A DNA stretch of 64,000 bases from Bacteroidales bacterium (GCA_036655355.1 JAVVQG010000008.1:30404-94403), one strand, 5' to 3'. Numbered from the stretch's first letter, positions 10,019 through 55,696 are shown. The notes: generated from the sequence alone by a model not told the origin. A program made the numbers and translations.

Positions 10019-10030
10019 ATCCCCTCTGAA

Positions 10031-17726: not shown

Positions 17727-17959
17727 GGAACGTAATTTTAATAAACAAATTTTTCAAAAAGTTTTTTTGTTATTTATTTTACTGATTAGCTGACTTATTG
17801 TTATTGAAAACAAGGGAGCGCTGACTTTTGTTGAGTTCTCTTTTGTTATAAAAAGGTTATAAATATACTCGGAAGGTCCAATATTTAGTCGTTTCAGAAT
17901 TAACGTTTCTATTTTTTACTATCTTTGAATAATATATCATTTACGACCAGTCAAAGAAA

Positions 17960-18415
17960 ATGAGTGAATTTGTAACATCTCCGGATAATCATGTAAAAGG
18001 TGTTTTTCTGGAAGCGATCGGGAAAGTAAAGAATAATGAGTTACTCTCATTATCAGATTTATACGTAGGCGTCAGTTTTGATGATCTGGCACTTACAGTT
18101 TATGATGACGAGGAAGCGTTGCTTGCCCAGGCCAACATCGATGAGTGGGCGGACTTTAAAGAGGATCCCGATACGTTTCAAGAGCGTGTGACGGAAGTGT
18201 TGAAGAAAACACTTCACGAGAAGGATCTTAAAGATGCAATTGAGGCGCTCGATGTGATTCGTCCGTTTTCAGTTGTGTTGGTTGATGAAGATTTTGAACA
18301 AAAGGAGGAGCTCTTCAGACTAGATGACAATCTGGTGGTTATTGAAGATGATTTTCTAAAAAATATTGATCAGGAACTGGATGACTTCCTTAAGAATCTT
18401 TTAGCGGATGTATAA
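17960..18415 (+). CDS. acidic hypothetical protein
   Basis: 151-aa ORF with a clean reading frame, very rich in D/E (…DEDFEQKEELFRLDDNLVVIEDDFLKNIDQELDDFLKNLL). No motif was recognised. Confidence 0.55.
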   Translation: MSEFVTSPDNHVKGVFLEAIGKVKNNELLSLSDLYVGVSFDDLALTVYDDEEALLAQANIDEWADFKEDPDTFQERVTEVLKKTLHEKDLKDAIEALDVIRPFSVVLVDEDFEQKEELFRLDDNLVVIEDDFLKNIDQELDDFLKNLLADV

Positions 18416-18562
18416 GGAGTTGTTTGAGATGGCTTGAAGACATTTTGAAAAAACTATGAAGGAGGATGTACCGGCGAGGTATATCCTCCTTTTGACATAA
18501 ACGATACCGGGGTCTCCTTGGTAATGAGGCGAGCGATTGATTATCAAATAACATATAGATAT

Positions 18563-28492: not shown

Positions 28493-28507
28493 GCAATCCG
28501 TGTGCCA
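28493..28507 (-). promoter_or_regulatory. sigma54 (-24/-12) promoter of the efflux operon
   Basis: The minus strand reads cTGGCACacggaTTGCAt, a full match to TGGCAC-N5-TTGCW. It lies about 45 nt upstream of the hlyD-like ATG, and a sigma54-dependent activator is encoded in the same gene string. Confidence 0.75.
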
Positions 28508-28633
28508 GATTTTTAAAACAATGATAATCAATGGATTTGTGAAAAAGTAGCTGTTCGGAATCGGACACTTGTGTTCATTATCGTATTGTGAAACTTCTGA
28601 CTTTCTATATGAAAGTAAAATATCCCAAAAATG

Positions 28634-28892
28634 AAATTCTATTTTTTGAGAGTTATCTACCCAGAAGAATCTTTGGCTGGATAAACACCTTATTTACTCT
28701 TAATGCAAGAGATTATATAAAAGCAGAAAATCCAAGATAATCACAACGACGATCTTGGCTCTTCTGCTTTTACTATTGGACTATTATAATGGGTATTATG
28801 GAACGAGCTGATGACAAAGTTTATTACAGTCTCGAAATCACAGAAAAATCAAATGCTGCTTAACTTTGGTCCAACAAAAGATGGCAATTCCA
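28634..28892 (+). repeat. island intergenic repeat, copy A (full length, diverged)
   Basis: It shares aaattctatttt...ttatttactcttaatgcaagagattatataaaagcagaaaa-hairpin-tactattggactattataat...ggaacgagctgatgacaaagtttattacagtctcgaaatcacagaaaaatcaaatgctgcttaac...ggcaattcca with copies C, D and E. Its big hairpin carries 2 stem mismatches. Confidence 0.85.
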
Positions 28893-29080
28893 GCCGGATA
28901 ATCTATGATTTGTCTTTCATACGAATCATTTTAACCTTGCATTGGTTTGATAACACAAAGAAGTTAAATATTTTAGAGTATTCTATTATTCCTCTAACGA
29001 ATACTCCGTCTATGATGATTAGTGGTATACTTTTCAATGAGTATATAGATTTGCTCTTATTTCAAAAGTTCCTATGAAAT

Positions 29081-29158
29081 AAGAAGGCCAGAATAATCGA
29101 ATTGATTGTCCTGACCTTTAGATTTTTACTATTGGACTATTATAATCCGTATCATGGA
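29081..29158 (+). repeat. island intergenic repeat, copy B (diverged hairpin module only)
   Basis: Hairpin aagaaggccagaataatcgaattgattgtcctgaccttt is followed by the conserved tail tactattggactattataat. Confidence 0.6.
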
Positions 29159-29189
29159 GTAATATTGTCAATTGCACCACTTTTTCTTC

Positions 29190-29501
29190 TTATATTAGAT
29201 CCTGTTGGAATTCATGAATAATCTTTATTCCCAGCACTGATTCTATTTTAGAAAGAGTTTCAAGTGAAAGGTTCTCTTTTCCTTTTAGTATCTTGGAAAT
29301 ATACTGTTGACTACAATCCATCATTTCAGCTAGTTTCTTTTGGGTTAAGCCTAGTTCATCCATACGATCGTGCATCCGAATAGCTATCATCTGAGAATAC
29401 CGCAACCATTCACGGTTTTGTCTGCGAAATTCAGCTTCTTCTCTCCATTTGGAGGGAGTGGCAGAAGTAAATTTTCTTAGTTTCTCTACTGTTGCTTCCA
29501 T
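29190..29501 (-). CDS. XRE-family helix-turn-helix protein (putative antitoxin)
   Basis: 103 aa with the HTH LGLTQKKLAEMMDCSQQYISKILKGKENLSLETLSKIESVLG. It starts 9 nt after the upstream ORF. Confidence 0.8.
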   Translation of the reverse strand: MEATVEKLRKFTSATPSKWREEAEFRRQNREWLRYSQMIAIRMHDRMDELGLTQKKLAEMMDCSQQYISKILKGKENLSLETLSKIESVLGIKIIHEFQQDLI

Positions 29502-29509
29502 TGATTTTT

Positions 29510-30061
29510 TTATTTTAGTTCGCGAAGATAGTCTTCAAAACCATCATTATCTATTATACCTTCATTAAGTAGGAAAGTCCTTACACGTTCCATATTTGCC
29601 AATTCATCAAGTGTATGTTGACGATCTTGCATAGTGGCTGTTAGTTTAATAGCACCTCCCGTTATGATATAAACTCCCTTTGATAACTTTATCGCATATA
29701 TTCTTAACCAAGATGCATGGTAAGATCGCTTATCAACTTTTCCCTTTTCCTTTCCAAGCATTATATCTTTTATTCTGCTTGGTTCGAGATGACGAAATAA
29801 TTCATCGAGGTCAGCATCCGGTGAAATATCCATAATAAGGCATTGTAGACGTTCGGCATCCTCTATAGTGTCATAGATTGCCTGATTGACCTCCGTAATC
29901 TTAAAATATGAATTAAGGTCATCATAATTCTCTTTGAAGAAGGAACGAAGCCATGTCACATCATTCCATTTATCAAGTATAGTATATAATATATTTTCAC
30001 TATGCCCATCATATCTTACAGCCCAAAGGCGCCCATCCTGTGTTATATCATCAAAAGTCAT
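29510..30061 (-). CDS. hypothetical 183-aa protein, possible RelE/HigB-like toxin with N-terminal extension
   Basis: It appears translationally coupled to the XRE gene. The C-terminal SWLRIYAIKLSKGVYIITGGAIK resembles the RelE/ParE-fold beta strands, while the N-terminal half is unassigned. Confidence 0.5.
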   Translation of the reverse strand: MTFDDITQDGRLWAVRYDGHSENILYTILDKWNDVTWLRSFFKENYDDLNSYFKITEVNQAIYDTIEDAERLQCLIMDISPDADLDELFRHLEPSRIKDIMLGKEKGKVDKRSYHASWLRIYAIKLSKGVYIITGGAIKLTATMQDRQHTLDELANMERVRTFLLNEGIIDNDGFEDYLRELK

Positions 30062-30350
30062 CTATTATTTATTTAATGCAAAGATAATAGACCTCTTTCT
30101 TTTATACAACTATCAGGTTGTATAAAAGAAGTAATCATCTTATTTTTAATAAATAACAAGCTATGGTTATAGAAGTTTATTTGCTTCCGATTTGTGTATT
30201 TAGCCGTCCATATCTTCCCATCGTTATTTACACACCGTAGTTGCGTTTATAAATATACTCAAGTCTGATTGGAAGAAAAGCACCTTAAGAATGATTAAGA
30301 ACGTCGTATAAATACCCGTCGCCATTCGAAAAGGAAATCGATGAAAAACT

Positions 30351-30550
30351 AAATTCTATTTTCAGATGGTTATTTATATCTCTAGGGTTTTAATCGGATA
30401 AAATACCTTATTTACTCTTATTGCAAGAGATTATATAAAAGCAGAAAAGCCAAGATAATCACATCGACTATCTTGGCTTTTCTGCTTTTACTATTGGATT
30501 ATTATAATTGGTGTTTTGGAACGAAATGATTAATCGAAACAGTTTATTTC
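30351..30550 (+). repeat. island intergenic repeat, copy C (5' two-thirds)
   Basis: It is nearly identical to copy E over the perfect 20-bp-stem hairpin (30438-30488) and the tail tactattggattattataattggtgttttggaacgaa. It diverges after about 30529. Confidence 0.85.
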
Positions 30551-30717
30551 TTTAGAATGGAACTATGTATAAAAACAAATCCCCTTCGACAAAGGAAGAG
30601 GATTCTTGATATTTTTTATAGTGCAGTAAGCTGGGATTTAGTATGTAGGGGTTACTTACCCATTTCACCCCACTATATTGGTCGAGCTATTAAATGATTT
30701 AGGGACTTTCTTGTTTT

Positions 30718-31122
30718 TTATAGAGACAATAGTTCAGCTCCAATTTTGTGAAGCACATCTATTATCTGTTGTTTTCTTTCGCAAGAAGGATTCTTACTTC
30801 CTTTTATATAGGCTGCCATAAGACTCTGTGGGATACCAAGTCTTCGAGAAACTGCAGATACATTTAGTTCGGGATGTCCTCGAAATATATTCGCAATATC
30901 TCCGGATGGTTTGCGTTCTTCATATTCAAAGCTTTCGAAAGACACGTCTTCATCAATATCCTCCCAATGGATTCCGAAAGCATTGGTTCGATAATTAACA
31001 CGTTGTTCTTGTGTAGCAAGTTTCAATCTTGGATACCATAATAGAGATTGCCAAAGTATTTTACCTTCATCGGTCTCGATGAAAATCTTATCATCATCAA
31101 ACCATAATCTTCCTACTTTCAT
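30718..31122 (-). CDS. DUF2442-like domain fused to a C-terminal HTH
   Basis: 134 aa. The N-terminal pattern FDDDKIFIETDEGK...LLWYPRLKLATQEQRVNY...GIHWEDIDEDVSFESF matches DUF2442. The C-terminal LNVSAVSRRLGIPQSLMAAYIKG is a HTH. Confidence 0.7.
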   Translation of the reverse strand: MKVGRLWFDDDKIFIETDEGKILWQSLLWYPRLKLATQEQRVNYRTNAFGIHWEDIDEDVSFESFEYEERKPSGDIANIFRGHPELNVSAVSRRLGIPQSLMAAYIKGSKNPSCERKQQIIDVLHKIGAELLSL

Positions 31123-31132
31123 AATTCATTTT

Positions 31133-31369
31133 TTAAACTCCGAAATAATGATTCCATTCTTCCCGGAAATTAATCTTATTTTCTTCAAGTATACTTTCTG
31201 CTAAACGTATGTCTTTAGGTTTTAACCCTTTATTCTCTATAAGAATTACATCTTCTTCAATAACAAACTTTGCTACACCATCAGAGCACTCAACATGTAT
31301 ATGTATCGGTTCGTGTTCTCTGCTATAGAAGTAAAATCTAAGTCCAAATAATATTAATAATGTTGGCCT
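31133..31369 (-). pseudogene. DUF4160-like ORF lacking a canonical start codon (AGG where ATG is expected)
   Basis: A hand translation gives (R)PTLLILFGLRFYFYSREHEPIHIHVECSDGVAKFVIEEDVILIENKGLKPKDIRLAESILEENKINFREEWNHYFGV*. This fits the DUF4160 pattern MPT...FY..EH.PPH.H. It is absent from the ORF track because there is no ATG/GTG/TTG start, and it ends 10 nt before the DUF2442 gene. Confidence 0.5.
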
Positions 31370-31584
31370 TGTGGGTAATTTTAGATATATACAAATATAG
31401 GTTATAAAATTATATCCTACAATTATAACACATGAAATTAGATTAAGTAAAAACTATTTAGAAGAAGTACTTAACCGAAGGTTTATGAATGCTTGAGAGA
31501 AGTAGGTAATTATCTTCCTTATTTGAAATTTGAACACTTATTTCACACAATATGTTATAGTTATAATAAGCAGCCTATTTACAT

Positions 31585-32181
31585 ATGAAGCACGTAATTG
31601 TATATATTATATTTTTAATCACACTTTTCTCTTGTGAAGAGAAAAGTGTAATACCTATCTACGATTTAGGTAGGGTAGAATATGAAGTTCTTAAAGTTGA
31701 AGAGAAAAGTGAATTATCCAATTGGGTGGAAATTGATAATCTAAATAGTTCTTCCGAAACTATTCATAATTTAGAACTTCCTTCGAAACTATATTTTTCA
31801 TATCAATATATAGAACCTTATTGTCTGGATTCTATTAAACCAACATTGATTAATATTCCAAAATATAATGCAGCTGGTACTTTTATAAATATGACAAAAA
31901 ATAAGTATCAGTTTAGAATTAATCATTCCGAAAAAATAGATTCAGATAATATATATCAATTTCAAGTGATTGTACCTAAAAACGAAAAATATATAATTGA
32001 AATTTATAATAATGGAATTTCAATAGAAGGAAAATTTAAAGCATTATTAAATGGACTAGAATCAAAAGAGGTAGAGGGTAAATGGCTTAGTATTCAATTT
32101 GTTAGTTATACCGTAATTATAAGGGACAATCAGCAGGAGGTAGTCATGAGAAATACCTTAGATATTATCGATAATTTTTAA
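31585..32181 (+). CDS. hypothetical lipoprotein
   Basis: 198 aa with the lipobox ITLFSC, in AT-rich island context. No recognisable domain. Confidence 0.6.
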   Translation: MKHVIVYIIFLITLFSCEEKSVIPIYDLGRVEYEVLKVEEKSELSNWVEIDNLNSSSETIHNLELPSKLYFSYQYIEPYCLDSIKPTLINIPKYNAAGTFINMTKNKYQFRINHSEKIDSDNIYQFQVIVPKNEKYIIEIYNNGISIEGKFKALLNGLESKEVEGKWLSIQFVSYTVIIRDNQQEVVMRNTLDIIDNF

Positions 32182-32263
32182 ATTTATATTATTAAGATTA
32201 CCGCTATATAAAAATAATAACCAAGACGTGAGGGATTTGTTACCTATGAATCGGGTAAAAGTA

Positions 32264-32308
32264 CAAGTTTGAAAAAGTGTGATGAACTTTTTCAAACTTG
32301 ACTTTTTA
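32264..32308 (+). terminator. intrinsic terminator after the 198-aa lipoprotein gene
   Basis: Perfect 15-bp stem caagtttgaaaaagt / actttttcaaacttg with loop gtgatga, followed by actttttatt. Confidence 0.75.
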
Positions 32309-32340
32309 TTGCTTTGAATGATGTGCTTTACCGGAGGCTT

Positions 32341-32435
32341 ATGGAACGAACTGACGACAAAGTTTATTACAGTCTCGAAATCACAGGAAAATCAAATGCT
32401 GCTTAGCTTTTATTCAATAAAAGTAGGCAATTCCA
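32341..32435 (+). repeat. island intergenic repeat, copy D (3' module only)
   Basis: atggaacgaactgacgacaaagtttattacagtctcgaaatcacaggaaaatcaaatgctgcttagcttttattcaataaaagtaggcaattcca. It ends 16 nt from the stop of the 209-aa lipoprotein gene. Confidence 0.85.
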
Positions 32436-32451
32436 ATTGCCATTTTCTATG

Positions 32452-33081
32452 TTATCTTGTTCCATAAGTGGCATGGATCGTAATGGAATCAGTTGGATTC
32501 TTTTCGTTGTATAATGTCCCTTCTATTTTTACTTCTATTATCGGCTTCATGTAATTAAGCCATATTACATCCAAAATTTCTACTTTAAAGGGGTTGTTTT
32601 CTTTTGTTACATACCGAGATTCAATGCTTTTTTCGGTTTCATTCTCTAGTTTTGTAAAGTATAGATTTATCCGATTGTGGTCCCAATCCTTATAATAAGA
32701 ATTAGTGAGATAACGAATACCTTTTTTTAAATCATACATATATATGACAATAGAAGCATTCTCTTCATATTCAATAGATGTAGGCATTGCTACTATAGTA
32801 TCTTTATCGTTACCACTTGGATAAAAGATTCCTTTCATATTACTATGTATAGGGTTGAAAGGGTATCCTATTTTTTCTGGATACCCAACATTTTCAATCG
32901 AAATATATTTTTTATTGATTGTCCCTTTGAAATATCCCCAATGTATGTTCTCTTCTTTTGATTTTGGTTCCAAAATCGTACCATCTTTATCATTACATGA
33001 AGATATAATCAGATTAGATAAAAGAATTGTCAAAATAAGAATTTTGTACTTTTTCATCCATTTAAAAATTTGTGTATTCAT
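32452..33081 (-). CDS. hypothetical lipoprotein
   Basis: 209 aa with the lipobox LIISSC. It is AT-rich and has no recognisable domain. Confidence 0.6.
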   Translation of the reverse strand: MNTQIFKWMKKYKILILTILLSNLIISSCNDKDGTILEPKSKEENIHWGYFKGTINKKYISIENVGYPEKIGYPFNPIHSNMKGIFYPSGNDKDTIVAMPTSIEYEENASIVIYMYDLKKGIRYLTNSYYKDWDHNRINLYFTKLENETEKSIESRYVTKENNPFKVEILDVIWLNYMKPIIEVKIEGTLYNEKNPTDSITIHATYGTR

Positions 33082-33291
33082 ACAATGAGTATTCCGACGA
33101 AAGTGTAGATCTGTTCCGGAGGAAAGTGTACATCTCAGAAGAGTTGAAAAATTATAGATAAACGTATTAAGATTTATTTTCTACTCATAGACTCTCCTTT
33201 ATTATGTAAAGAATTACATAACAAAGGGTAAGCGTAAAGCTGTTGCCATCAATCACATAAAAGGAGTTACTTTTAAAGTTGACTTCTTATG

Positions 33292-33538
33292 TGGTAGCTG
33301 ATTCCTGGTTTGCAAAATCAACTTTTTATCAAGGGCTTAACAAGATGGAATTTCATCTTATTTCGAGATTCAGAGATGATGCACAATGTTTTCCTGCTCG
33401 GAAGATTTATTGCAATGTTTGTCATTAATCTGAACAGAATCTTAAATGACAGACTTTTCAAAGGACTGGCCTAGTTTAGGGCGAATGCCGTTTAGCTCCA
33501 ATATTGGGTTTTTCGAATTTAATTACGAAATATTGTAA
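33292..33538 (+). mobile_element. decayed DDE transposase fragment with IS right end (copy 1)
   Basis: A broken frame reads VVADSWFAKSTFYQGLNKMEFHLISRFRDD, then jumps to a 3' part homologous to 41440-41596. It shares the terminus tagctccaatattgggttt..cgaat..aat.acgaa.tattgtaa. Confidence 0.6.
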
Positions 33539-33584
33539 TTTAATACCCCCCTAAAAAGGAGAAGCGGACATCGTGATACTATGC

Positions 33585-34187
33585 TTAGAATTTTAATGGA
33601 ACAAATACTGATATACCAAAATCTCTAGTGTAAACTCTTTGAGTAGACTTTAAATATTCAAGAACGGGCTTAAATCCATTCTTATAGAAAACAGATACCT
33701 GCATAAACTGAAAATCAAATCCAATCTGCCCCATTGCTGCAATATCCCAATACGTTTTTTGTTTGTTATTAAAAGTTCGGTTATCCCAATAATAGCTTGG
33801 ACAGGCTCCTATTCCAACAAATAACCGATTCCATACAAATCGGTTTACGGAGATAGTCATACCGACAGACTGTAGTCGAGTGGTCTGTTTTTCTGTTTCA
33901 TCGATAAAAGTGACACCAATACCGCGGTTTTGATAAGCAAGAGATAAATCATACATATATCTTTTTGATTCATATTGGATTTTATATCCTATATTAAATG
34001 AAAAACTTGGATGCCATTTATCTGATTCTAAAATTGGAGTATACGGATCGTCCGGTCTGGTATACATTGAAGCTTGTCGTCTTACCCAACTATCAGCCAT
34101 TTCTAAAACTACACCATTCCGAAATTGACTAAAGAGACAAAATGGAGTACATATCAAAAAAGCGTAAATAAATATGATTCTTTTCAT
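33585..34187 (-). CDS. small outer-membrane beta-barrel protein (hypothetical)
   Basis: 200 aa with a signal peptide, alternating hydrophobic beta-strand pattern, aromatic girdle residues and a C-terminal ...VFVPLKF. Confidence 0.6.
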   Translation of the reverse strand: MKRIIFIYAFLICTPFCLFSQFRNGVVLEMADSWVRRQASMYTRPDDPYTPILESDKWHPSFSFNIGYKIQYESKRYMYDLSLAYQNRGIGVTFIDETEKQTTRLQSVGMTISVNRFVWNRLFVGIGACPSYYWDNRTFNNKQKTYWDIAAMGQIGFDFQFMQVSVFYKNGFKPVLEYLKSTQRVYTRDFGISVFVPLKF

Positions 34188-34313
34188 TTTTGTATAATTA
34201 AAAGTCAGTCATAAATTAAACTCTATCAAAGAAAATATATTTGAAATTGTTTTATATAGGAGATATATTATTAAAAGTCAGAATAATATTATAATGCCAG
34301 AGAAACAAATTAA

Positions 34314-35300
34314 TTAGGGATTATCCTTCTTGTCATATAATGTTTTTTTCTCACAAACAGAGATTACTCGAAAATAACCTAATATTTCATTCCCGAAATT
34401 CCCTTTCAAACTTGTAGGAGAAGGCATATATGCCCCTCCATCGGCCCGTAATTGATCTATTTGTCCGGAAACGAAGTTGAAGTATGATTCTGATATTGAT
34501 CCAACACGGATAGTGGCAGAATCAGTTTCATTAAAGGGATACCACATATTAGTGGGATAACCCTTTGATGTTTCACCACTATTTACCTGGAAATTACGAA
34601 CATTTAATGGTAGGTTTTGCCCATCAGTAATAGAATATGACCAATTTTTTATATTCACCATATCCATAATCTCTTCCAAGGAACTACGTTTAAAGGAAAA
34701 GATATAATAGTTATTCTCATGAGAAGGGTTTATAAAGTCAATAAATGGAGTAAGTTGCCACCCCTCTTTTTCATGAGACACATAACGTATTTCAAAATTT
34801 GTTACTTCTGGGATACTTTGCATCTTTTCGGTAGCAATATACCGATGTTCATCATAAATAATCTCTAGTGTATAAGTATTACCAGGAATTCCTCTGATAT
34901 GATGAGAAGCAAAATATCCGTCAAAAATACTTTTGGGATCACTTATCTTCTTTGACTTAGAACAAATATAAATTGAATCCCCCCTATCATCAATATAGTA
35001 ATAAGAACATGTTTCGTAATTGCGTGATAAATATATATCTTTTTCAAGGGGTTGTAAGGTATCCTTCTTTCCAGTATTATCAGATAAAATCAATAAAGCA
35101 TTCTCAACCCCTTCAAAATAAGAAGCATTTAATGCTCCACTCTTGAAGAGTCTAAAATAATAAGGTGGGGAATCATTACTAATTTCTCCTTCTATTACTA
35201 ACTTTTGTGGATAATAATACTGTTCCACTAAGTCTACTGTTTCAACACATCCTATATGTAATAGTAATAATAAACAAAAGCACAGTAATTCTCTTTTCAT
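34314..35300 (-). CDS. DUF4249-like lipoprotein
   Basis: 328 aa with the lipobox LHIGC. Its size and position immediately downstream of a CarboxypepD_reg-type TonB-dependent receptor fit the common Bacteroidetes TBDR-DUF4249 pair. Confidence 0.65.
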   Translation of the reverse strand: MKRELLCFCLLLLLHIGCVETVDLVEQYYYPQKLVIEGEISNDSPPYYFRLFKSGALNASYFEGVENALLILSDNTGKKDTLQPLEKDIYLSRNYETCSYYYIDDRGDSIYICSKSKKISDPKSIFDGYFASHHIRGIPGNTYTLEIIYDEHRYIATEKMQSIPEVTNFEIRYVSHEKEGWQLTPFIDFINPSHENNYYIFSFKRSSLEEIMDMVNIKNWSYSITDGQNLPLNVRNFQVNSGETSKGYPTNMWYPFNETDSATIRVGSISESYFNFVSGQIDQLRADGGAYMPSPTSLKGNFGNEILGYFRVISVCEKKTLYDKKDNP

Positions 35301-35302
35301 GA

Positions 35303-37582
35303 TTAAAATTTAAAATTATAAGTTACAGAAGGTAGGATGCCATACAAATACATCTTACAAAAATGGCCTTTATTCATCCCGTCTTTATCATATCCCGCAA
35401 ACATGCTAAATACATTTTTCCGGTCATAAAGATTCATTATACCAAAACTCCATTCTGACTTCAATCGATAGTTATTAATAGGCTTATAATTTATCATTAA
35501 ATCTAATTGATGAAACAATGGTGCGCGATAACCATTTCGTTCAGAATATTCATAAAAAACTACACCTTGATAGATATAAGAATTAATAGGTAATGTTAAA
35601 TTCATACCTGATCGTAAAGCAAAGGTTGAAGAAAGACTCCATTTGGAATCTAATTGCTGTGCTATGAATAATTTTAAGGAATGAGGACGATCATAAACTG
35701 GTCTATAGCTTTTCCCATTATTAATTCCGTCAATATGATTACGTGAGAAAGAATATGTATAAGAGATAGTCGCATGAGTAGTAGCCGTTTTGAAATCAAA
35801 TAACATTTCAACACCATATGCGTTAGACCATCCTGATAAAAGTTCATTTTCAATTCCATCATTCATAAAGAGATTCGCATTATCCTTAAAGTCAGCTATA
35901 TGTTGTGTGTTTTTATAATATGTTGCTATTTCCAATGCAAACTTCTGTTTAAAAAAAGATTGTTTGTAAGCAGAAGAAAATTGATAGGTAATCATTGGAT
36001 GCAATAATTTGTTAGCCGGTAACCAAATATCAGAAGGTAAACCTATCGAAGAATTTGTCATTAAGTGCATATTTTGAGAAGCAACATTTGCTGAAATCAA
36101 GACATTTGCCGTACCAGATAATTTCTGTATTAATTGTAATCGTGGTTCTGGAATAATAAAAATAGCTTGTGACATCATTTTATTTTTATTAGAAAATAAA
36201 ATGGGTAATCTTATACCTCCTTCTAATGTGGTTTTTTCAGAAATAGAATAATTTACTCCTGTATATAATACCGTCTCGAAACATTTTCTTTCACCCATAG
36301 AGAAAGGTATTATATTTGAATTATCATTCATTTTACTCACTTCCCCAGGCAACGTATAGAAAAGAGAGCCTTCAACTCCCAGCCTAAAAGATAATCTTTG
36401 AGAAAAATACCATTCCATATTCTCTTTAAGATTAAACATTCTAATATCCGAACTCCATAGATAATCTTTTCCATCTGAATAATGTTCATAGTCATAATTG
36501 TAATTACTATAACTTAAAGTTGTATTCAAATTCATTTTTTCTTTTACAATACTACTCCAACGAAAAGTACCTGTAGCATTTTTCCAATGCATCGCATAAT
36601 CGGAAACTACAGCTGCTGCATTGAAATGATCGCTGCTAGTATAAAAAGATAAGTAAAATCTATTTCGAGAGTTGGTTGTCAGATTCACTTTTGCATTCAC
36701 ATCATAATAATCAATTTGGGAGTTACTAAAGTCTACTTGCTTATAATTAAATAAGCCTGCTTTATCAAGTAGGTTTAAAAGACCTCCCGGATTACCATAT
36801 CGTCCGGATAGAATAAATGAAAGTTTTTCCTTGATTATAGGTCCTTCTATTGACAAACGCGAAGCCACTAAACCGACTCCACCTTTCAATTGATAATGCT
36901 GATTATTACCTTCTTTCATTCTTACATCTATCACACTAGCATTTCTTCCACCATAGTTTACAGGCATATAAGCTTTGTAAAATTCCACTTCTTTAACTGC
37001 ATCATTATTAAATACTGAAAAAAAAGAAAGTGCATGGTTTGGATTATATACAATCGCCTCGTCTAATAATATAAGATTTTGCCAATGATTGCTACCTCGA
37101 ACTGATAAGTTATTAACACCGTCATTAGCATTTACTACGCCAGGGTAAGATTGTATACCTTTTAATAAATCGGGTTCACCTCCAGCTGTAGGAATTAAAG
37201 CTATATGATTATTTAGCAAATGATGATAACCTATATTGACCTTCTGCTTACTTTCTACAACAACTTCATTTAAATTGGTTACTGTTGGGGACAATGATAT
37301 TAGTATAGTCGTATCTTTCCTTACATTTAATAAAATACTTTTAGTTTCATAACCTATCATTGAACATTTAATCTCAATTGGTGCTTCTGTAAGTTTAAAT
37401 TCAATCGAAAAAAAACCATAAGAATTTGATATTGTTCCTGTATTTAATCTTTTATAATAAATATGTGCTCCACTAATCAACTCTCCGGAATTTGCAACTT
37501 GAACTCTTCCAGCCAAAGTGATAGTGCTTCCAAAAGCGACCAATGGAATAAATATTAATAAAAACAATATTATTTTTAGCAT
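35303..37582 (-). CDS. TonB-dependent receptor with N-terminal carboxypeptidase-regulatory-like domain
   Basis: 759 aa with a signal peptide and the GRVQVANSGELISGAHIY...TGTISNSYGFFSI motif. It also has a plug (LLKGIQSYPGV...LSVRGS), a long beta-barrel and a C-terminal ...SVTYNFKF. Confidence 0.85.
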   Translation of the reverse strand: MLKIILFLLIFIPLVAFGSTITLAGRVQVANSGELISGAHIYYKRLNTGTISNSYGFFSIEFKLTEAPIEIKCSMIGYETKSILLNVRKDTTILISLSPTVTNLNEVVVESKQKVNIGYHHLLNNHIALIPTAGGEPDLLKGIQSYPGVVNANDGVNNLSVRGSNHWQNLILLDEAIVYNPNHALSFFSVFNNDAVKEVEFYKAYMPVNYGGRNASVIDVRMKEGNNQHYQLKGGVGLVASRLSIEGPIIKEKLSFILSGRYGNPGGLLNLLDKAGLFNYKQVDFSNSQIDYYDVNAKVNLTTNSRNRFYLSFYTSSDHFNAAAVVSDYAMHWKNATGTFRWSSIVKEKMNLNTTLSYSNYNYDYEHYSDGKDYLWSSDIRMFNLKENMEWYFSQRLSFRLGVEGSLFYTLPGEVSKMNDNSNIIPFSMGERKCFETVLYTGVNYSISEKTTLEGGIRLPILFSNKNKMMSQAIFIIPEPRLQLIQKLSGTANVLISANVASQNMHLMTNSSIGLPSDIWLPANKLLHPMITYQFSSAYKQSFFKQKFALEIATYYKNTQHIADFKDNANLFMNDGIENELLSGWSNAYGVEMLFDFKTATTHATISYTYSFSRNHIDGINNGKSYRPVYDRPHSLKLFIAQQLDSKWSLSSTFALRSGMNLTLPINSYIYQGVVFYEYSERNGYRAPLFHQLDLMINYKPINNYRLKSEWSFGIMNLYDRKNVFSMFAGYDKDGMNKGHFCKMYLYGILPSVTYNFKF

Positions 37583-37596
37583 ACTTAAAATGTGAT

Positions 37597-37956
37597 TTAC
37601 AGATTAGAAATAGCCTCTTCAATTAGAAAGCAAATTTCTTCAGCTGGCCCGGAATTGATAACTAACTTATTGTTTATAATTAAAGAGGGAGTGGAATACA
37701 CACCGTTTTTAATTGATTTCTCATTAGAAAACTCTAATTTTTGTTTTATGCTTTCACAATGGAGATCTAGATTAAACTTATTTGTATCTAAGTCTAATGA
37801 GTCTGCAAAATGGTACAAAGTATCCTAATCAATCATTGCTTTATGATTAAATAGTAGATTTTGATTTGCTGCAGTTTCTGATGCAATTTGAGACAATGTC
37901 GGATATACAGGAAAATTCACGAATCCAAATTTAGCCTTTTCTTTATATGAATTATA
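37597..37956 (-). pseudogene. DsbA/thioredoxin-like protein remnant (N-terminally truncated, in-frame TAG at 37825-37827)
   Basis: The minus frame reads ...KFGFVNFPVYPTLSQIASETAANQNLLFNHKAMID*DTLYHFADSLDLDTNKFNLDLHCESIKQKLEFSNEKSIKNGVYSTPSLIINNKLV... This is the C-terminal DsbA-like pattern (G..sTP..iiN). No CXXC segment remains. Confidence 0.5.
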
Positions 37957-38086
37957 TCACTAGTTTCTGCTAAAAAACAAAAATCGTTCTTTTAAATAAT
38001 TGATATTCTATTACTTGTGAGCCTATTTTGAGCGTGACGATTTGAAATCATAGATTTGCGTTGCTTTAATAGCAGGATAATGAACA

Positions 38087-38600
38087 ATGGCAAATACATT
38101 TATACTCAAATAACAGATTTTTTTACTAGAATCCGTTTTCGATCGAATAGTCAATAAGTATGATGACAACAAATATGTAAAGCATTTCACCTGTTGGAAT
38201 CAACTACTAACAATGATGTTTAGTCAGTTAACATCAAGAGATAGTTTAAGAGATTTGATCGTTGCAATAGATGCTCATTCTCAGAAAAGCTATCATCTTG
38301 GATTTAGTAAAAATGTAACGTTAATGATGTAATTGTTATGGATGTCATACCTTATGAGATTCGTGCTTACTATATCTTCGATAGAGGATATGTGGATTTT
38401 GCCAGACTCTATACTATAAACAAATTGTCTTCGCAATACGTGATTTGAGCAAAAAAGAATATGAAATATTACAATTTTCAGGAACTTCGCTATTAGATGA
38501 AATTCCTGTAAAAGAGCTCTTTAGTAAAAAAGAATATCAAGAAGTCAAAGATCAAAATAATAACCAGCTGTCACTTAGCTTATTTTAAGTGGACAGCAAG
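38087..38600 (+). mobile_element. IS4-family (DUF4372-type) transposase pseudogene, internally deleted
   Basis: Three fragments are visible: MANTFILK*, then in another frame VKHFTCWNQLLTMMFSQLTSRDSLRDLIVAIDAHSQKSYHLGFSKNVT (the DUF4372 signature), then ...YYIFDRGYVDFARLYTI.... Multiple stops and deletions compress the remnant to about 0.5 kb. Confidence 0.7.
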
Positions 38601-38735
38601 GGTAATTCATGAAATATTCTGTAATGTTAAATTCAAAGATAAATTAAAGGTTTTGATTGGACTGTGTTATTGGTAAAATATTGTAAATTTATAATAATAT
38701 TTTAATTAGTGGCGATTATCATTAAAAACTATATT

Positions 38736-41048
38736 ATGAGATTATTCCTCTCTCTTCTCATTTTTCTCGTTGAATTTTCTTTGTTTGCTCAAGGAGATTG
38801 TTTCCGGGGAAAGGTTATGGATGCATCCGGAGAAACTGTACCTTTTGCCAATGTTGCATTGTATCCTAGTCAAGATAGTACTCGGATAATAAGCGGATAT
38901 ACCACAGACTTAAACGGTATATTTACCATTGATCAATTAACGGCAGGCAAGTATTTACTTAAAGTTTCATATATCGGCTACTCCACGGTTTCTTTCTCTT
39001 TTGAATTGACGGGTTCGGAAAAGACTCCTATCTATCAGGAATTCATTCTCGAGCCATCGTTTATTTCTTTACAGGAAGTTGTGGTAAAAGGAAATAATGT
39101 GACTCAGGGTATCGATAAGTCAACCTATACTTTTACAGATAAACAGATAAATAAAGCCAACGAATCGAGGGAGCTTTTATCCACATTACCCAACATGCAC
39201 ATCGATAAAAGTAGTAATGCCCTTAGCACGATTAACGGCAAAAAGGTCTTGATCCTGATAAACGGTGTTCAGGCCACGGATGCGGATCTGCAACTTATCG
39301 CTGCCGATAAAATACGAAGAGTGGAGTATTATGATGTTCCTCCAATTCGCTATATGGATAATGCGGAAATTGTATTGAATGTCGAAACCAAACCACTGGA
39401 TACCGGATACAGCGGCTCTTTATACGGCACTGTCGGCGAATTTTTTTCCAATGGCACCGCAGCCTTCTCTTTTGTAAAAGGAAACAACAAATTTGTTGTC
39501 AGCTACGGTACGCACGTCAATATAAAACGGAGTGTGAGAGATATAGAGCAGGGAATCTATCTATATCAGATTGGCAATGACGTATATAATTATAAATACA
39601 AAACCTTAAGCAAAGAATGGGGTAATCAAAATAATGCCCGTCTCTCTTACTCCAAGAGCGTAGAAGATGATTTTGACTTTCAAATCAATGTTACGGGAAA
39701 TATTGTTAAGTCAGATTTAAGAGCCGATAAAGAGATCGTAGTGTCCCAAAATCAAGATATCGATGCTTGCTCCGGATTACTCTCGGATTATACGAAGAGT
39801 AAGTCACCTGCGATGGATATTTATTATTCAAAGAAATTCAAGCATAACAACACCCTAATATTCGATGTATTGGGTACAATGTATGATAACAGGCAGCATA
39901 CGGTTTCATCACAGACAGGTAGGTTTGGTTTTGATGACAATCTTATTCTGGATAATAAAAAAAGCTCCATAATCGGAGAACTGGTTTATGAACATGCCCT
40001 CGGAGGAGCAAACATAACCGCAGGATATCGCGGATATTGCAATTTTCTATCCAACAACATACAGAATTCATTATCGGAAGAACGGGTTAAAAACAATATT
40101 GTAACTCAGAAACATCGTCTATACGGAGAGATTAGTGGTCGTGTAGGCTCTTTTATGTACCGAGCCAGTCTGGGGGGAGATTATGACCGGAATAACGATG
40201 CATCCGGATTTGATAATCTGACATTCACACCTCAGTTCTTGCTGGGTTATAATATCAATAAGAAAAATAGCATTCGCCTCACTTATGAGTCGAGTACTTT
40301 GTTACCGAACATCCAACAACTTTCAACCGCTAATATTCTGATCATGGACAAATTCTATCGTTCCGGGAACAAAGATTTGAGTAACGCCCATGTTCAGCAG
40401 TTTAGCCTGCGCCATGCATATACGTTGAATATTTTCTCCTTGCAGACAAAATTGTTTTATCATATGAATCAAAACGGTTTTTTCGACAATTATATATTAA
40501 ATGGCGATAATATTATTCTTCAGACCGCAAATGCCAAAAAAGATCACCAAAGGGGCGCCGAGGTTAGCTTAAACTTTTCTCCCTGGCAATTCCTTCGCAT
40601 CGGGGGAAATGTAAATTTCGTGAATTATGACTTTCAGCCGACAAAGGATGTACCGGCACAAACTTATTGGTCTTATCCGGCTACGGTTTATTTAAATGCC
40701 AGGTATAAAAACTTCTCTTTATATTACCTTCAGAAGTTCGGAGGTAGTTATCTGAACGGACTTTACAAGCGTGGTCTTGAGAAGGCATCTTATCTCAGTC
40801 TCGGATACCAAATAAAAAAGGTAACGATCGAGGCCAAATGTTTCTTTCCTTTTATTAAAAATGAGTTTACAAACGAAACGACAAATCAGAGTCTGATCTT
40901 CAATCAAGCCGATTTCTATAAAAAACGAAAGGACCGAACCTTTGCATTGAGTTTCTCGTGGAACTTCCAGTCTGGTAAACGCAAAAGTTCGATTGAGAAA
41001 AGTATCGAGAATTCAGATGATGATAAGGGTCTTTTTAATGTACGTTGA
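38736..41048 (+). CDS. outer-membrane beta-barrel / TonB-dependent-receptor-like protein with carboxypeptidase-regulatory-like N-domain
   Basis: The signal peptide starts at the internal ATG (MRLFLSLLIFLVEFSLFAQ). It is followed by GKVMDASGETVPFANVALY... and YIGYSTVSF (CarbopepD_reg) and a long beta-barrel. Confidence 0.8.
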   Translation: MRLFLSLLIFLVEFSLFAQGDCFRGKVMDASGETVPFANVALYPSQDSTRIISGYTTDLNGIFTIDQLTAGKYLLKVSYIGYSTVSFSFELTGSEKTPIYQEFILEPSFISLQEVVVKGNNVTQGIDKSTYTFTDKQINKANESRELLSTLPNMHIDKSSNALSTINGKKVLILINGVQATDADLQLIAADKIRRVEYYDVPPIRYMDNAEIVLNVETKPLDTGYSGSLYGTVGEFFSNGTAAFSFVKGNNKFVVSYGTHVNIKRSVRDIEQGIYLYQIGNDVYNYKYKTLSKEWGNQNNARLSYSKSVEDDFDFQINVTGNIVKSDLRADKEIVVSQNQDIDACSGLLSDYTKSKSPAMDIYYSKKFKHNNTLIFDVLGTMYDNRQHTVSSQTGRFGFDDNLILDNKKSSIIGELVYEHALGGANITAGYRGYCNFLSNNIQNSLSEERVKNNIVTQKHRLYGEISGRVGSFMYRASLGGDYDRNNDASGFDNLTFTPQFLLGYNINKKNSIRLTYESSTLLPNIQQLSTANILIMDKFYRSGNKDLSNAHVQQFSLRHAYTLNIFSLQTKLFYHMNQNGFFDNYILNGDNIILQTANAKKDHQRGAEVSLNFSPWQFLRIGGNVNFVNYDFQPTKDVPAQTYWSYPATVYLNARYKNFSLYYLQKFGGSYLNGLYKRGLEKASYLSLGYQIKKVTIEAKCFFPFIKNEFTNETTNQSLIFNQADFYKKRKDRTFALSFSWNFQSGKRKSSIEKSIENSDDDKGLFNVR

Positions 41049-41142
41049 AAGATGTTATTGTGGAATGTACTTATCACTTATTGTTTCAATATTTTCCTTT
41101 CAGATGGAAACACATTGATTCGTTTGGGAAATTTTATCTTGA

Positions 41143-41596
41143 ATAACGATTGTTCAAAAAGAAGGAGTAGTAAGTCCATTGAATGCTATACAGCTGTATT
41201 TCTCCCCAGATGTAGAAATGTCCGGCTATGACGTAATTGAAATTTATAGAAGTCGTTTTCAGATCGAGTTCAATTTTCGCGATGCTAAACAGCATGCTGA
41301 ACTCTGTGGTTCACAAAGTCGCGATATTGACAAGATTAATTTTAACTTTAATGCCTCTCTGACCACAGTAAATCTAGCAAAGGCGTATGCTATCAAGCCA
41401 AACAAGCCTTTTTCAATGGCTTCTGTTAAAACAGTGATGCACAATGCTTTCCTGCTCGAAAGATTTATTGCGGTGTCCGGTATTAATCCGAACAGAAACT
41501 TAAATGACAGACTTTTCAAAGAACTCGTTGAGTTTGCGGCTATTGCCGCTTAGCTCCAATATTGGGTTTTATCGAATATAATAACGAACTATTGTA
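41143..41596 (+). mobile_element. C-terminal fragment of a DDE transposase plus IS right end (copy 2)
   Basis: The open frame from 41143 contains the YRSRFQIEFNFRDAK motif (Y-2-R-3-E-6-K signature of IS4-like DDE enzymes). The N-terminal catalytic part is missing, and the terminus ...acgaactattgtaa abuts repeat E. Confidence 0.75.
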
Positions 41597-41769
41597 AAAG
41601 CAGAAAAGCCAAGATAATCACATCGACTATCTTGGCTTTTCTGCTTTTACTATTGGATTAATATAATTGGTGTTTTGGAACGAACTGACGACAAAGTTTA
41701 TTACAGTCTCGAAATCACAGGAAAATCAAATGCTGATTAACTTTTGTCCAATAAAAGTTGGCAAGTCCA
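41597..41769 (+). repeat. island intergenic repeat, copy E (hairpin + 3' module)
   Basis: Perfect 20-bp-stem hairpin at 41597-41647, identical to copy C. It continues tactattggattaatataattggtgttttggaacgaactgacgacaaagtttattacagtctcgaaatcacaggaaaatcaaatgctgattaacttttgtccaataaaagttggcaagtcca. Confidence 0.85.
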
Positions 41770-41996
41770 CTCTTCTTGCAGTTGAATGTTCCAACCTAAG
41801 GCCACAACCCCAAGGGGTTTCTTTGAAATTATAACGTCCCTCTATTCCTAAGCAACCGTTTATCTCTGAGCCGTCCCTCCATGATAACTACCTAAGGTGT
41901 ATTAAGTCCTGCTGGAATCTCTCCTTCAAATCATTTTTAACTACATAAAGAAACCGGTACCTATTCACGAATAGAAGGGATACCGGTTTCCATATT

Positions 41997-42266
41997 TTAG
42001 AATAATTCGGAGTGACTGCCAAGCCGTAGAATATCTATGAAATCGTTTTTCTCATCAAGCCAAATGAGTAGAAAATCCCCCTCAATATGACATTCAAGGC
42101 ATCCTTTGTATTGGCCGATTAGCCAATGAGCTTTTAACTCTGTTGGGAGCTCTTCTTCGTTTTCGAGTAGCCGAAGGACTTCCAATAGTTTTTCTAATTT
42201 TTTTGGCTGGTTGCGATATTTCTTAAAATCTTTCTTGTATTGCGTGCTATAGCGTAATATTTTCAT
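41997..42266 (-). CDS. type II toxin, YafQ/RelE family mRNA interferase
   Basis: 89 aa: KKDFKKY...LEVLRLLENEEELPTELKAHWLIGQYKGCLECHIEGDFLLIWL...ILRLGSHSELF, the YafQ pattern. Confidence 0.85.
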   Translation of the reverse strand: MKILRYSTQYKKDFKKYRNQPKKLEKLLEVLRLLENEEELPTELKAHWLIGQYKGCLECHIEGDFLLIWLDEKNDFIDILRLGSHSELF

Positions 42267-42514
42267 TCTTCACACGACTTTATGAATGCTTCCATACTGC
42301 TTGTGTCAATCGTTCCGGCATATTTCCCAGCTTTAGCCTCTTCAATGGCAGCAATAGTCGTATTATTGGGCTCATTGTAAATAATCTCCATCAAGATGCT
42401 TTCCACATAGTTATTTAGGCTCCGATGCTCTTTCTTCGCTTCTTCTTTTAGACGATCAAGCAGATCCGAACTAAGTCGGAATGCCGTCTGCTTTCTGTTT
42501 ATGATAGCTTCCAT
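42263..42514 (-). CDS. ribbon-helix-helix antitoxin (RelB/DinJ/CopG-like)
   Basis: It overlaps the toxin start by 4 nt. The start is set at the internal ATG (MEAIINRKQTAFRLSSDLLDRLKEEAKKEHRSLNNYVESIL), and the sequence fits the RHH pattern. Confidence 0.75.
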   Translation of the reverse strand: MEAIINRKQTAFRLSSDLLDRLKEEAKKEHRSLNNYVESILMEIIYNEPNNTTIAAIEEAKAGKYAGTIDTSSMEAFIKSCEE

Positions 42515-42863
42515 ATATGTTATATTATATATCACAAATGTATAACAAATGTATAACACTTAAAAGGCATAAAAGATTTTTATTTTACCGATCGACAAGA
42601 ACTAGTGTATTTACCCGTCGTTTCCCACTCGAAAGGGGAATCGACGAAAAAACGATAATACTACCTTTTTTTCGACCACTTGAGTACGTTGTTAAGTTTC
42701 AGTCTGTTAGAAGTCGAAATGACTCCTCTTGAAATTTCGCTCTTTTTTTGGTTAATTCTTCAGTGAAAGCAAGGGGGAGCGATGCGAATTCCTTCAATAA
42801 TTAACAGTCTCCCAGGGAAAATATCGAAGCATCCTGCAAAAAAGCACAGTGTTCCTAAAAAAA

Positions 42864-42941
42864 GGCGATTTCCCGGCGGACGAAGGCTTATTTCATGGCG
42901 GACGAAGGCTTGTTCCCCGGCGGACGAAAGCTTGTTTCACG
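42864..42941 (+). repeat. tandem 22-bp direct repeats (3 full + 1 partial), left array
   Basis: ggcgatttcccg | gcggacgaaggcttatttcatg | gcggacgaaggcttgttccccg | gcggacgaaagcttgtttcacg. Confidence 0.9.
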
Positions 42942-43353
42942 GCCGTCAAAACAACATTGTCTAGGCATCCGGTAAACGTTTTTCTGCTTCAGTAAAGGGT
43001 TTCGAAGGATCTTTGAGCCAGAAGTTAAGGGCGGCAATCCGCATTGGTCTATTGGTTTTAAAACGAGACTATTAACAATTTCATTTTTACATTGTTAATC
43101 GAAAATGCGTTCATGGCTCTTTCTCTTTTTTAGCTGCGTAAGGATACCGATTGAATGTTAAATTTATGATTCAAGGCGATCAATCGTTGGTTTTTCGGCT
43201 CTTGCTACGCTAGAGAAGGATTCGGAGTCGATTCCGTGTATAGTTGAATAATTGTTTATTTTTGTAAATATAACAACTATTTCTATCAATTCGGTTGATA
43301 ATGAGAAATATAATCTGTTTTTTCTTCCTGTTCAATCGATTTCGGTCCCTTAT

Positions 43354-43980: not shown

Positions 43981-44065
43981 CAACCTAATCCTATAAAAAC
44001 GGCTCCGATTCCTATAAAAACGGCACCTGATCCTATAAAAACTACTCCGATTCCTATAAAAAACG
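43981..44065 (+). repeat. tandem 21-bp direct repeats x4 (core TCCTATAAAAAC)
   Basis: caacctaatcctataaaaacgg | ctccgattcctataaaaacgg | cacctgatcctataaaaacta | ctccgattcctataaaaaacg. Confidence 0.9.
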
Positions 44066-44144
44066 TGTGAACCTGCGGTTGAACTTTCGTGTAACCGCGC
44101 TTAAACTTTCGTGTTACCCTGCTTAAACCTTCGTGTAACCGCGG
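44065..44144 (-). repeat. tandem 22-bp direct repeats (3 full + 1 partial), right array, inverted relative to the left array
   Basis: gtgtgaacctgcgg | ttgaactttcgtgtaaccgcgc | ttaaactttcgtgttaccctgc | ttaaaccttcgtgtaaccgcgg. The reverse complement (GCGGTTACACGAAAGTT...) shares the GCGG...ACGAARGYTT core with 42876-42941. Confidence 0.8.
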
Positions 44145-55233: not shown

Positions 55234-55696
55234 TCGTAAATCCAAATTTTTCAAGTCGTATGTATTGCAAAGACAAAAATCCAAATTTTATTTTTGAAAA
55301 ACAAATCGTCTTTTCTCTTGTATTTTTGAAATAGAATATAACTACCTGATTCTCAGTTGTCGTTTGAAATCGTCTTTCGTTGAGTGTTAATTTATATTTG
55401 CATTTTTACATTATTGATACTCAATAGGTTGCTCTGATTCTGCTCTACGGCATAAATAAAGAGAATTACATTGTTAATTTCTTCAAAACCCTTTTGTCGA
55501 AAGGTATTCCGGAGTTTGAGGAAAATAGAAGTCAACCGAAATAATATATTTTAATTCTAAATAATGAAATATGTTGAAAGATAGATAATTCAGGGAAACA
55601 GCCCTTAATAAGCTTCTTGGAGGGTATTACAGCATTTGAAAAAAAATATAATAATAGGGGGTTTTATTTTAAGGAATGGGGTGGGATTATCTCCAA

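Follow-up and report, generated by a model that had tools for sequence, protein, structure and literature searches.

A 64-kb stretch of a Bacteroidales genome (64,000 nucleotides, GCA_036655355.1 JAVVQG010000008.1:30404-94403; hereafter the window, which is included in contig JAVVVU010000007.1 of GCA_036652475.1, a Bacteroidales metagenome-assembled genome (MAG)) carries a non-coding repeat of ~266 nt in five copies, A to E, which share one orientation, lie between unrelated small gene modules and all fall inside 13 kb (Table 1). We tentatively read this element as a lineage-specific junction repeat of an island that was assembled stepwise and is now decaying, with a hairpin that doubles as a minus-strand terminator and a junction between its third and fourth modules that serves as the preferred crossover point, a combined reading that we place somewhat short of an even chance. 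The pattern is suggestive, drawn as it is from five copies in a single sparsely sampled lineage.

The copies were located by repeat finding, BLASTN, pairwise alignment and an nhmmer profile, and the full order of parts (module i, hairpin, module iii, module iv) is seen in copy A. Among A, C, D and E, identity by pairwise alignment ranged overall from 87 to 93% (A/E, 90% over 175 nt; C/E, 92% over 113 nt and ~98% across the hairpin and module iii; D/E, 93%, and A/D, 90%, each over 97 nt), and copy B showed ~73% identity to C overall and 91% to A across module iii. A 23-mer of module iii matched four times in the window and a 30-mer of module iv three times, each against 0.00 matches expected from 100 shuffles, and a chance origin of the copies is excluded. 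The left edge is common to A and C and the right edge to A, D and E, a 31-nt stretch is invariant across the latter three, and short-read (Logan) contigs break within the repeat. An nhmmer --max profile search of the window returned these five copies and nothing else, with none in the other 51 kb, and a whole-window repeat search found this family, insertion sequence (IS) fragments and one tandem array, the repeat and the IS fragments being the only dispersed families. Rough P values were ~0.06 for the shared orientation and ~0.01 for the clustering. The initial annotation had described five same-orientation copies with up to four ordered modules, including a long hairpin, set between unrelated small gene units in an AT-rich island eroded by IS insertions, and it had asked whether the copies were confined to this locus. 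BLASTN, alignment and nhmmer recovered the copies to within a few bases of the positions first given and placed them at this locus alone within the window, annotation with Pfam, NCBIfam and PADLOC upheld the layout, and the hairpin, the base composition and three IS4/IS701-family fragments bore out the remainder.

Three discontinuities fall at the module iii/iv junction. Copy B stops at the position equivalent to 28802 in copy A (its 3' limit, ...CATGGA, lying 31 nt from the XRE stop codon), copy D begins at the equivalent of 28796 with the bases TTATGGA, and the two half sites overlap by 5-7 nt. Copies C and E are ~98% identical up to GGAACGAA (~28810 in A) and then ~75% identical with a 5-nt insertion, after which similarity stops. 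Three breaks inside ~15 nt of a 266-nt element correspond to a post hoc P of roughly 0.003. The possibility that copy D is a diverged full-length copy was considered and rejected, as its left flank has no significant similarity to the other copies. We infer that these discontinuities are recombination scars; the clustered breaks, combined with the common orientation of the copies and their restriction to the island, favour recombination at the repeat over random transposition and random decay, and the lack of terminal inverted repeats (TIRs) and of dispersed copies in the window argues against simple transposition.

Table 1. Positions of the repeat copies, their hairpins and the neighbouring features, counted from the first nucleotide of the window.
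Feature	Position	Strand	Remarks
Copy A	28627-28892	+	full length, ~266 nt: module i, hairpin, module iii, module iv
Copy B	29049-29158	+	left half: end of module i, diverged hairpin, module iii
Copy C	30344-30548	+	module i, hairpin, module iii, then diverged, truncated module iv with 5-nt insertion
Copy D	32339-32435	+	right half, module iv only
Copy E	41591-41769	+	hairpin, module iii, module iv; left part removed by IS end
Module iii/iv junction, TTATGGAACGAGCT in copy A	28796-28810	+	putative crossover point, post hoc
Long hairpin, copy C	30436-30490	-	21-26-bp stem between A run and T run; called as intrinsic terminator
Equivalent hairpin, copy A	28718-28772
Equivalent hairpin, copy B	~29076-29126
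Equivalent hairpin, copy E	41595-41649
Hairpin unrelated to the repeat	32256-32308		30 nt to the left of copy D, where the 198-aa (+) and DUF5025 (-) genes converge; bidirectional terminator
Cassette 1: 183-aa protein and XRE antitoxin-like protein	29190-30061	-	PADLOC candidate PDC-M64, components B and C
Cassette 2: DUF4160 (DhiT-like toxin) and DUF2442	30718-31453	-	own terminator at 30577-30605
Orphan 198-aa lipoprotein gene	31585-32181	+	orientation opposite to neighbours
DUF5025 lipoprotein gene	32452-33081	-
RHH and YafQ/RelE toxin-antitoxin pair	41997-42559	-
IS4/IS701-family fragment, 3' end	33279-33538	+	85% identity to 41435-41597
IS4-family transposase fragment, 5' part	38114-38600	+	frameshifted
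IS4/IS701-family fragment, 3' end	41143-41597	+	stops at copy E hairpin

Read along the minus strand, the locus runs from RHH/YafQ through copy E, the IS end, ~8 kb of outer-membrane genes with two IS fragments and the DUF5025 gene to copy D, and past D through the unrelated terminator, the 198-aa gene on the opposite strand, DUF4160/DUF2442, copy C, 183aa/XRE, copy B, 156 nt and copy A to an efflux operon. The units are unrelated to each other, and three of them are toxin-antitoxin pairs (183aa/XRE, DUF4160/DUF2442 and RHH/YafQ) according to Pfam, NCBIfam and PADLOC. A Bacteroidetes-type promoter of its own is present in at least two units, and DUF4160/DUF2442 and RHH/YafQ each possess a terminator separate from the repeat. 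The 183aa/XRE pair matched the PADLOC candidate defence system PDC-M64 (component C, 2e-17; component B, 8e-6), and its promoter has a TATCTTTG -7 box at 30079-30086 within a palindrome; this palindrome (30080-30147, 31-nt arms), which overlaps the -7 box, is probably the operator of the pair. The DUF4160 frame (31136-31453, minus strand) has no ATG, GTG or TTG start, although the NCBI annotation calls a 101-aa product; decay of the gene and use of a rare start codon are both possible. The RHH/YafQ pair has its own TACATTTG boxes of the TAnnTTTG type (42535-42553) as well as a separate GC-rich terminator (near 41950-41990). As first described, copy D ends 16 nt beyond the stop codon (32452) of the DUF5025 gene and copy E is located downstream of YafQ; the distance of E from the YafQ stop is 228 nt, and D falls within the DUF5025 3' untranslated region (UTR). 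Pfam, NCBIfam and PADLOC found no interbacterial immunity families (Imm, SUKH) among the cassettes, which belong to toxin-antitoxin families, to DUF5025 or to nothing recognised (families found: HTH_3/HigA-like, YafQ/RelE, DUF4160/DhiT, DUF2442, PDC-M64 and DUF5025). The array is now decaying, with IS fragments, truncated copies and a DUF4160 gene without a canonical start, and the right IS end (...TATTGTAA) directly adjoins the left arm of the copy E hairpin.

The central hairpin is highly stable, with folding energies of -23 to -41 kcal/mol and z scores of -7 to -13.6; the whole element has z scores of -4.4 to -4.8. The minus-strand RNA of the hairpin reaches -29 to -41 kcal/mol in copies A, C and E and -15.8 kcal/mol in B, a copy that retains the hairpin despite ~30% sequence change. 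In A, C and E the minus strand folds 4-6 kcal/mol better than the plus strand (in copy C, -39.6 vs -33.9 kcal/mol), because plus-strand mismatches become G-U pairs, and the strand thus favoured is that of the neighbouring genes. On the minus strand the stem is followed by a U-rich tract (UUUUAUAUAAU), and copy C, called as an intrinsic terminator, has both components of one on the transcribed strand, a stable GC-containing stem and a U-rich tract. Judged from these sequence features, the hairpin is most likely a factor-independent terminator, or an insulator, of the gene units on the minus strand. Of the terminator/promoter module proposed in the initial annotation, the terminator part is retained as a probable function, and the promoter part was dropped: no TAnnTTTG box is conserved inside the repeat, and the downstream genes have their own promoters.

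The island that houses the repeat differs in composition from its surroundings, its GC content being 26-37% between 28.3 and 38.7 kb and 36-43% from there to 44.3 kb, whereas the flanks have 44-53%, and it is bordered on each side by at least 19 kb of housekeeping genes. Its left neighbour is a sigma-54-driven HlyD/MacB-type efflux operon, with a perfect TGGCAC-N5-TTGC promoter (28493-28507, minus strand) 44 nt upstream, and its right neighbour is a GHL10 glycosidase gene. Copy A lies ~47 nt inside the left island boundary, as defined by a sister lineage (L070), and 178 nt upstream of the HlyD-type efflux operon. The sister lineage (HlyD, 94% amino acid identity; DNA, 89%) is collinear with the window up to position 28579 and keeps the sigma-54 promoter, and past that point it has a radical-SAM gene in place of copy A and the island. 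Since this junction lacks both, the repeat is island-borne rather than part of the ancestral chromosome. L070 alone was informative in this respect, as 48 HlyD loci of relatives were paralogous or non-syntenic upstream and allowed no empty-site comparison; the HlyD-type protein of the window has at most 76% identity to any species-representative genome, the nearest being Phocaeicola and Bacteroides.

In the assembly model that we prefer, the repeat would mark the joints at which unrelated, self-contained modules (the three toxin-antitoxin pairs and the small lipoprotein genes) were joined. New DNA would have been inserted or exchanged by recombination at the repeat, preferentially at the iii/iv junction (TATGGAACGA). 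The process would have left A, and E until the IS struck it, as complete copies, B and D as the left and right halves and C as a mosaic, and the 3.2 kb between B and D (29159-32338) may represent one such insertion. The agent could have been a site-specific recombinase, since lost or encoded elsewhere, or homologous recombination between copies on incoming DNA. If recombination at the repeat is real, gut Bacteroidales would possess a second, sequence-unrelated route for stacking accessory modules besides the known example, the recombinase-associated orphan-immunity array rAID-1, in this case an array without a recombinase in cis and stabilised by toxin-antitoxin pairs, which would be relevant to the construction of defence and addiction islands and to the recurrence of integron-like logic outside Proteobacteria. 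If the copies are instead decayed backbone relics that carry a terminator, the locus would be ordinary island archaeology in a poorly sampled lineage.

Several results weigh against this assembly model. No recombinase, tyrosine recombinases (Phage_integrase) included, was found in the window by Pfam among all open reading frames (ORFs) of at least 180 aa, in agreement with the initial annotation. Likewise, no recombinase fragment was recognised among the stop-free segments of at least 40 aa from non-coding parts of the island, a set inspected visually with no Pfam search, and IS4-family transposase fragments were all that could be recognised there. At the junction itself, inspection revealed no conserved dyad-symmetric core of the kind typical of tyrosine recombinase sites, and the statistic for the clustered breaks is post hoc, with three events in only five copies behind it. 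The 9-kb interval between D and E holds outer-membrane genes and IS debris rather than small cassettes. The variation in cassette content between strains that the initial annotation had asked about was not seen: all assemblies with the island hold identical content, cassette turnover is therefore unobserved, and none of them offers a second genome with a different cassette at a repeat boundary. Finally, no related repeat turned up elsewhere in any of the scans, so that the cassette pool which the model needs is unobserved as well. Exact-match scans were run module by module, each on some collections (species genomes for module iii; JGI metagenomes for modules i and iv; IMG/VR for module iii, module iv and a hairpin arm). 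The module iii 23-mer had no exact match in 185,579 species genomes, and its single match in IMG/VR, inside a coding region and with no flanking similarity, was dismissed as chance. Exact matches were likewise absent for module iv in IMG/VR and JGI metagenomes, for the module i 28-mer in JGI metagenomes and for the hairpin arm in IMG/VR. The full-length copy A had no match among plasmids and phages by BLASTN in distant mode, and the nhmmer profile found no repeat in ~1 Mb of fetched Bacteroidaceae loci.

The 183aa/XRE family is widespread, with 2440 matches, mostly on short contigs. Its members occurred beside IS elements, in L063 at one end of an element that bears an integrase, and in an SSB/RadC/UmuCD/ParA region (L075). 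No repeat was found beside 183aa/XRE homologues in the contexts examined, contrary to the earlier suggestion that the repeat travels with its cassettes, and weak nhmmer matches in L075 (E 0.12-9) proved on reading to have no real similarity. L075, an unrelated Logan contig, carries 183aa/XRE plus DUF4160/DUF2442 pairs at 9935-10866 and 17841-18501, 7 kb apart on the same strand; its SSB/RadC/UmuCD/ParA region resembles conjugative-element cargo, and the first pair lies between duplicated SSB-containing segments. The idea that the repeat is a single-strand promoter (Frpo-like) of a conjugative leading region came from the analogy with L075 only and was set aside, no feature supporting it.

The alternative that survives best, which we nevertheless regard as rather unlikely, is that the copies are passive relics, that is, the homologous non-coding backbone of several related mobile elements or island segments, such as accessory regions of integrative and conjugative elements (ICEs), that landed here and then decayed. 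The toxin-antitoxin modules would have survived because they are hard to delete, and the repeat would have no role in recombination, its hairpin being a terminator carried along. The co-occurrence of 183aa/XRE and DUF4160/DUF2442 in a conjugative-cargo-type region of L075, with a toxin-antitoxin pair between duplicated segments, is consistent with such an origin, as are the 183aa/XRE pair at the end of the integrase-bearing element in L063, the evident decay of the island (IS fragments and truncated copies), the 8-12% divergence between copies, which fits independent origins, and the frequent occurrence of local intergenic repeats (80-200 nt) at loci of related Bacteroidaceae. On the other hand, no homologous cassette context elsewhere has a repeat-like sequence, all backbone genes, integrases included, must have been lost from every segment, and the three discontinuities within ~15 nt are left unexplained.

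We consider it unlikely, and by a good way, that the repeat is a non-autonomous mobile element (a miniature inverted-repeat transposable element (MITE), a palindrome-associated element or the relic of an IS110-type end) that inserted repeatedly into intergenic sites of the island with its transposase encoded elsewhere. Such an element would be expected to have the discrete shared edges seen here (left in A and C; right in A, D and E) and a strong structure (whole-element z scores and the long hairpin as given above), the breakage of Logan contigs inside the repeat is what multi-copy DNA should produce, and a conserved-stop frame of 21-24 codons could be a fused transposase remnant. However, the ends carry no significant TIRs (129/2000, 1786/2000 and 878/2000 shuffles scored at least as well as the end alignments; P ~0.065 for copy A, the other end pairs not significant), inspection found no target-site duplications, no transposase of a hairpin-recognising family lies nearby, all five copies have one orientation with none in the other 51 kb, and neither the exact-match scans of the modules in their respective collections nor the BLASTN search of copy A against plasmids and phages returned a match. 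Pneumococcal BOX elements, enterobacterial repetitive extragenic palindromes (REPs) and bacterial interspersed mosaic elements (BIMEs), and Neisseria Correia elements resemble the repeat in being non-coding, in occurring as modular subsets and in forming stable hairpins able to terminate transcription. These families are scattered over whole genomes, with tens to hundreds of copies in either orientation, whereas the five copies of the present repeat all sit in one island, point the same way and lack TIRs. As far as the 64 kb of the window show, a generic genome-wide REP or MITE is unlikely; membership among MITEs, one of the options raised in the initial annotation, fails on the lack of significant TIRs.

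Sedentary chromosomal integrons offer a closer parallel in organisation. Their toxin-antitoxin cassettes usually have their own promoters, and clusters of attC sites lacking integron integrases (CALINs) are, as the name says, without an integrase. The island shares with them co-oriented, highly similar, hairpin-forming repeats of more than 100 nt that separate unrelated cassettes, toxin-antitoxin cassettes with their own promoters and, with CALINs, the lack of an integrase nearby. An attC site is an imperfect palindrome with a 5' R'' box (RYYYAAC), a 3' R' box (GTTRRRY) and extrahelical bases. The hairpin of the island, in contrast, is a near-perfect 55-nt palindrome without R''/R' boxes (by inspection against the consensus only), the only R-box-like 7-mers, ATTGGAC ... 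GTCCAAC, stand in the order opposite to RYYYAAC ... GTTRRRY, and the island has no IntI, attI or Pc and no tight packing of cassettes. Integron membership thus fails too. Tandem accretion of islands at one att site would likewise leave co-oriented direct repeats at the joints of unrelated blocks, and the complementary half sites B and D, overlapping by 5-7 nt, and the position of copy A within ~50 nt of the island edge are in line with it, but no block keeps an integrase, the repeat is far longer than the usual att core and L070 has no attB-like sequence. By analogy, the locus appears to work most like an integron, a CALIN, a rAID array or a tandem island accretion, and fits none of them as a member. 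A bolder version, which we deem improbable, is that the repeat is the recombination site of an undescribed Bacteroidales cassette-capture system, cut by a recombinase acting in trans at the TATGGAACGA junction beside the hairpin. Such a system, equally improbable in our view, would stack self-contained modules, stabilised by toxin-antitoxin pairs, into a chromosomal array and be a functional analogue of the sedentary integron or CALIN, with no sequence relationship to attC or to the recombinase context of rAID-1.

It is quite improbable that the island is a true rAID-type or other recombinase-served array, a CALIN analogue whose XerD-like recombinase lies elsewhere or has been deleted and whose site is the repeat. 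The clustering of breakpoints at one point of the repeat and the toxin-antitoxin cassettes with their own promoters, which are usual in sedentary integrons, would suit such an array; on the other side, the attC consensus is not seen, the units measure 1.2-1.8 kb, the spacers are long and one gene is inverted. The definition of rAID-1 includes a 5' recombinase and two or more co-directional downstream genes with a GC content of at most 41% (10.1101/471110), and a repetitive intergenic sequence is a stated feature of these arrays. Points (ii) and (iii) of that definition, the co-directional genes and their GC content, apply to the island, where five such genes occur on the minus strand (XRE, 183aa, DUF2442, DUF4160 and DUF5025; GC 26-37%). 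Further common traits are the AT-rich block in a Bacteroidales chromosome and the repeated intergenic sequence. Unlike rAID-1, however, the island has no XerD-like recombinase at its 5' end or anywhere in the 64 kb, its cassettes are toxin-antitoxin pairs and DUF lipoproteins with no immunity-family domains of the rAID-1 kind, and it has only five repeats. Although rAID-1 has been reported in over half of Bacteroidales (Ross et al., 10.1101/471110; PMC12247911), the exact 23-mer occurred in 0 of the 185,579 species-representative genomes scanned. Membership of the island in rAID-1 is not established. The integron-/rAID-like organisation proposed in the initial annotation thus stands as a pattern, in the confinement, co-orientation, placement at joints and clustered breaks, and is not supported as a membership, given the missing recombinase and attC layout, the lack of recognisable immunity genes, the units with promoters or terminators of their own and the 183aa/XRE homologues that occur elsewhere with no such repeat.

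A regulatory role in RNA was judged very improbable. Modules iv and iii with the hairpin could form a minus-strand small RNA or 3'-UTR family with the invariant 31-mer as its core, and the invariance of those 31 nt in A, D and E, the more stable hairpin on minus-strand RNA with the U-rich tail behind it and the location of copy D in the DUF5025 3' UTR would suit that idea; yet copy C lacks most of module iv and copy B all of it, no promoter is conserved (the minus-strand upstream sequences differ in A, D and E, and the repeat contains no conserved TAnnTTTG box), five copies in one lineage are too few for covariation, and Rfam gave no family at the gathering or a relaxed threshold. With Rfam 15, a tRNA alone reached its gathering score in the window and no family matched the repeat, and at E values up to 10 the hairpins gave sub-threshold matches only (NrrF, for one, scored 33 bits, below its cut-off of 60).

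The repeat was also considered as a coding gene and rejected, as its sole conserved open frame, of 21-24 codons, is too short and too poorly supported. This hydrophilic frame, (M/L)ER(T/A)DDKVYYSLEIT(G/E)KSNA(A/D), lies on the plus strand at 28790-28860, 32341-32406 and 41676-41740, its stop (TAA in A, TAG in D and TAA in E) has one common position, and in copy D a GGAGG stands 5 nt upstream of the ATG. A search of the translated module iv frame (WNELTTKFITVSKSQ...) against 5.8 billion proteins gave no candidate, a weak negative, as such small ORFs are perhaps not in the database.

Further features were observed around the repeat array. A TonB-dependent-receptor-like gene (38709-41048) lies between the 5' transposase fragment and the 3' fragment that follows it, on the same strand. 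The cumulative GC-skew minimum and a switch of gene strand coincide at ~37.6-38.7 kb, in a 1.1-kb AT-rich gap between divergent TonB-like genes, inside the island and ~16 kb from dnaA, which is located at 53821-55284 on the minus strand, 10 kb beyond the GHL10 side. Towards its distal end, the efflux operon carries the genes of a histidine kinase and of a sigma-54 activator response regulator. In at least one relative, a Bacteroides sp. MAG (L010), a different palindromic REP-like element, ATGTCATCCTGAGG...CTCAGGATGACAT, occurs at 9866-9960, 14686-14770 and 18236-18320, where it separates the sigma-54 promoter from the HlyD gene and also lies between FtsX paralogues, and it is absent from the window. 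A 23-nt unit is repeated twice at 33092-33135, upstream of the DUF5025 gene. Three tandem arrays of 21-22-nt units with ~3.5 copies each (42868-42943, 43983-44062 and 44064-44143) occupy the non-coding stretch between the region of a 168-aa gene and the GHL10 gene and have an iteron- or operator-like look.

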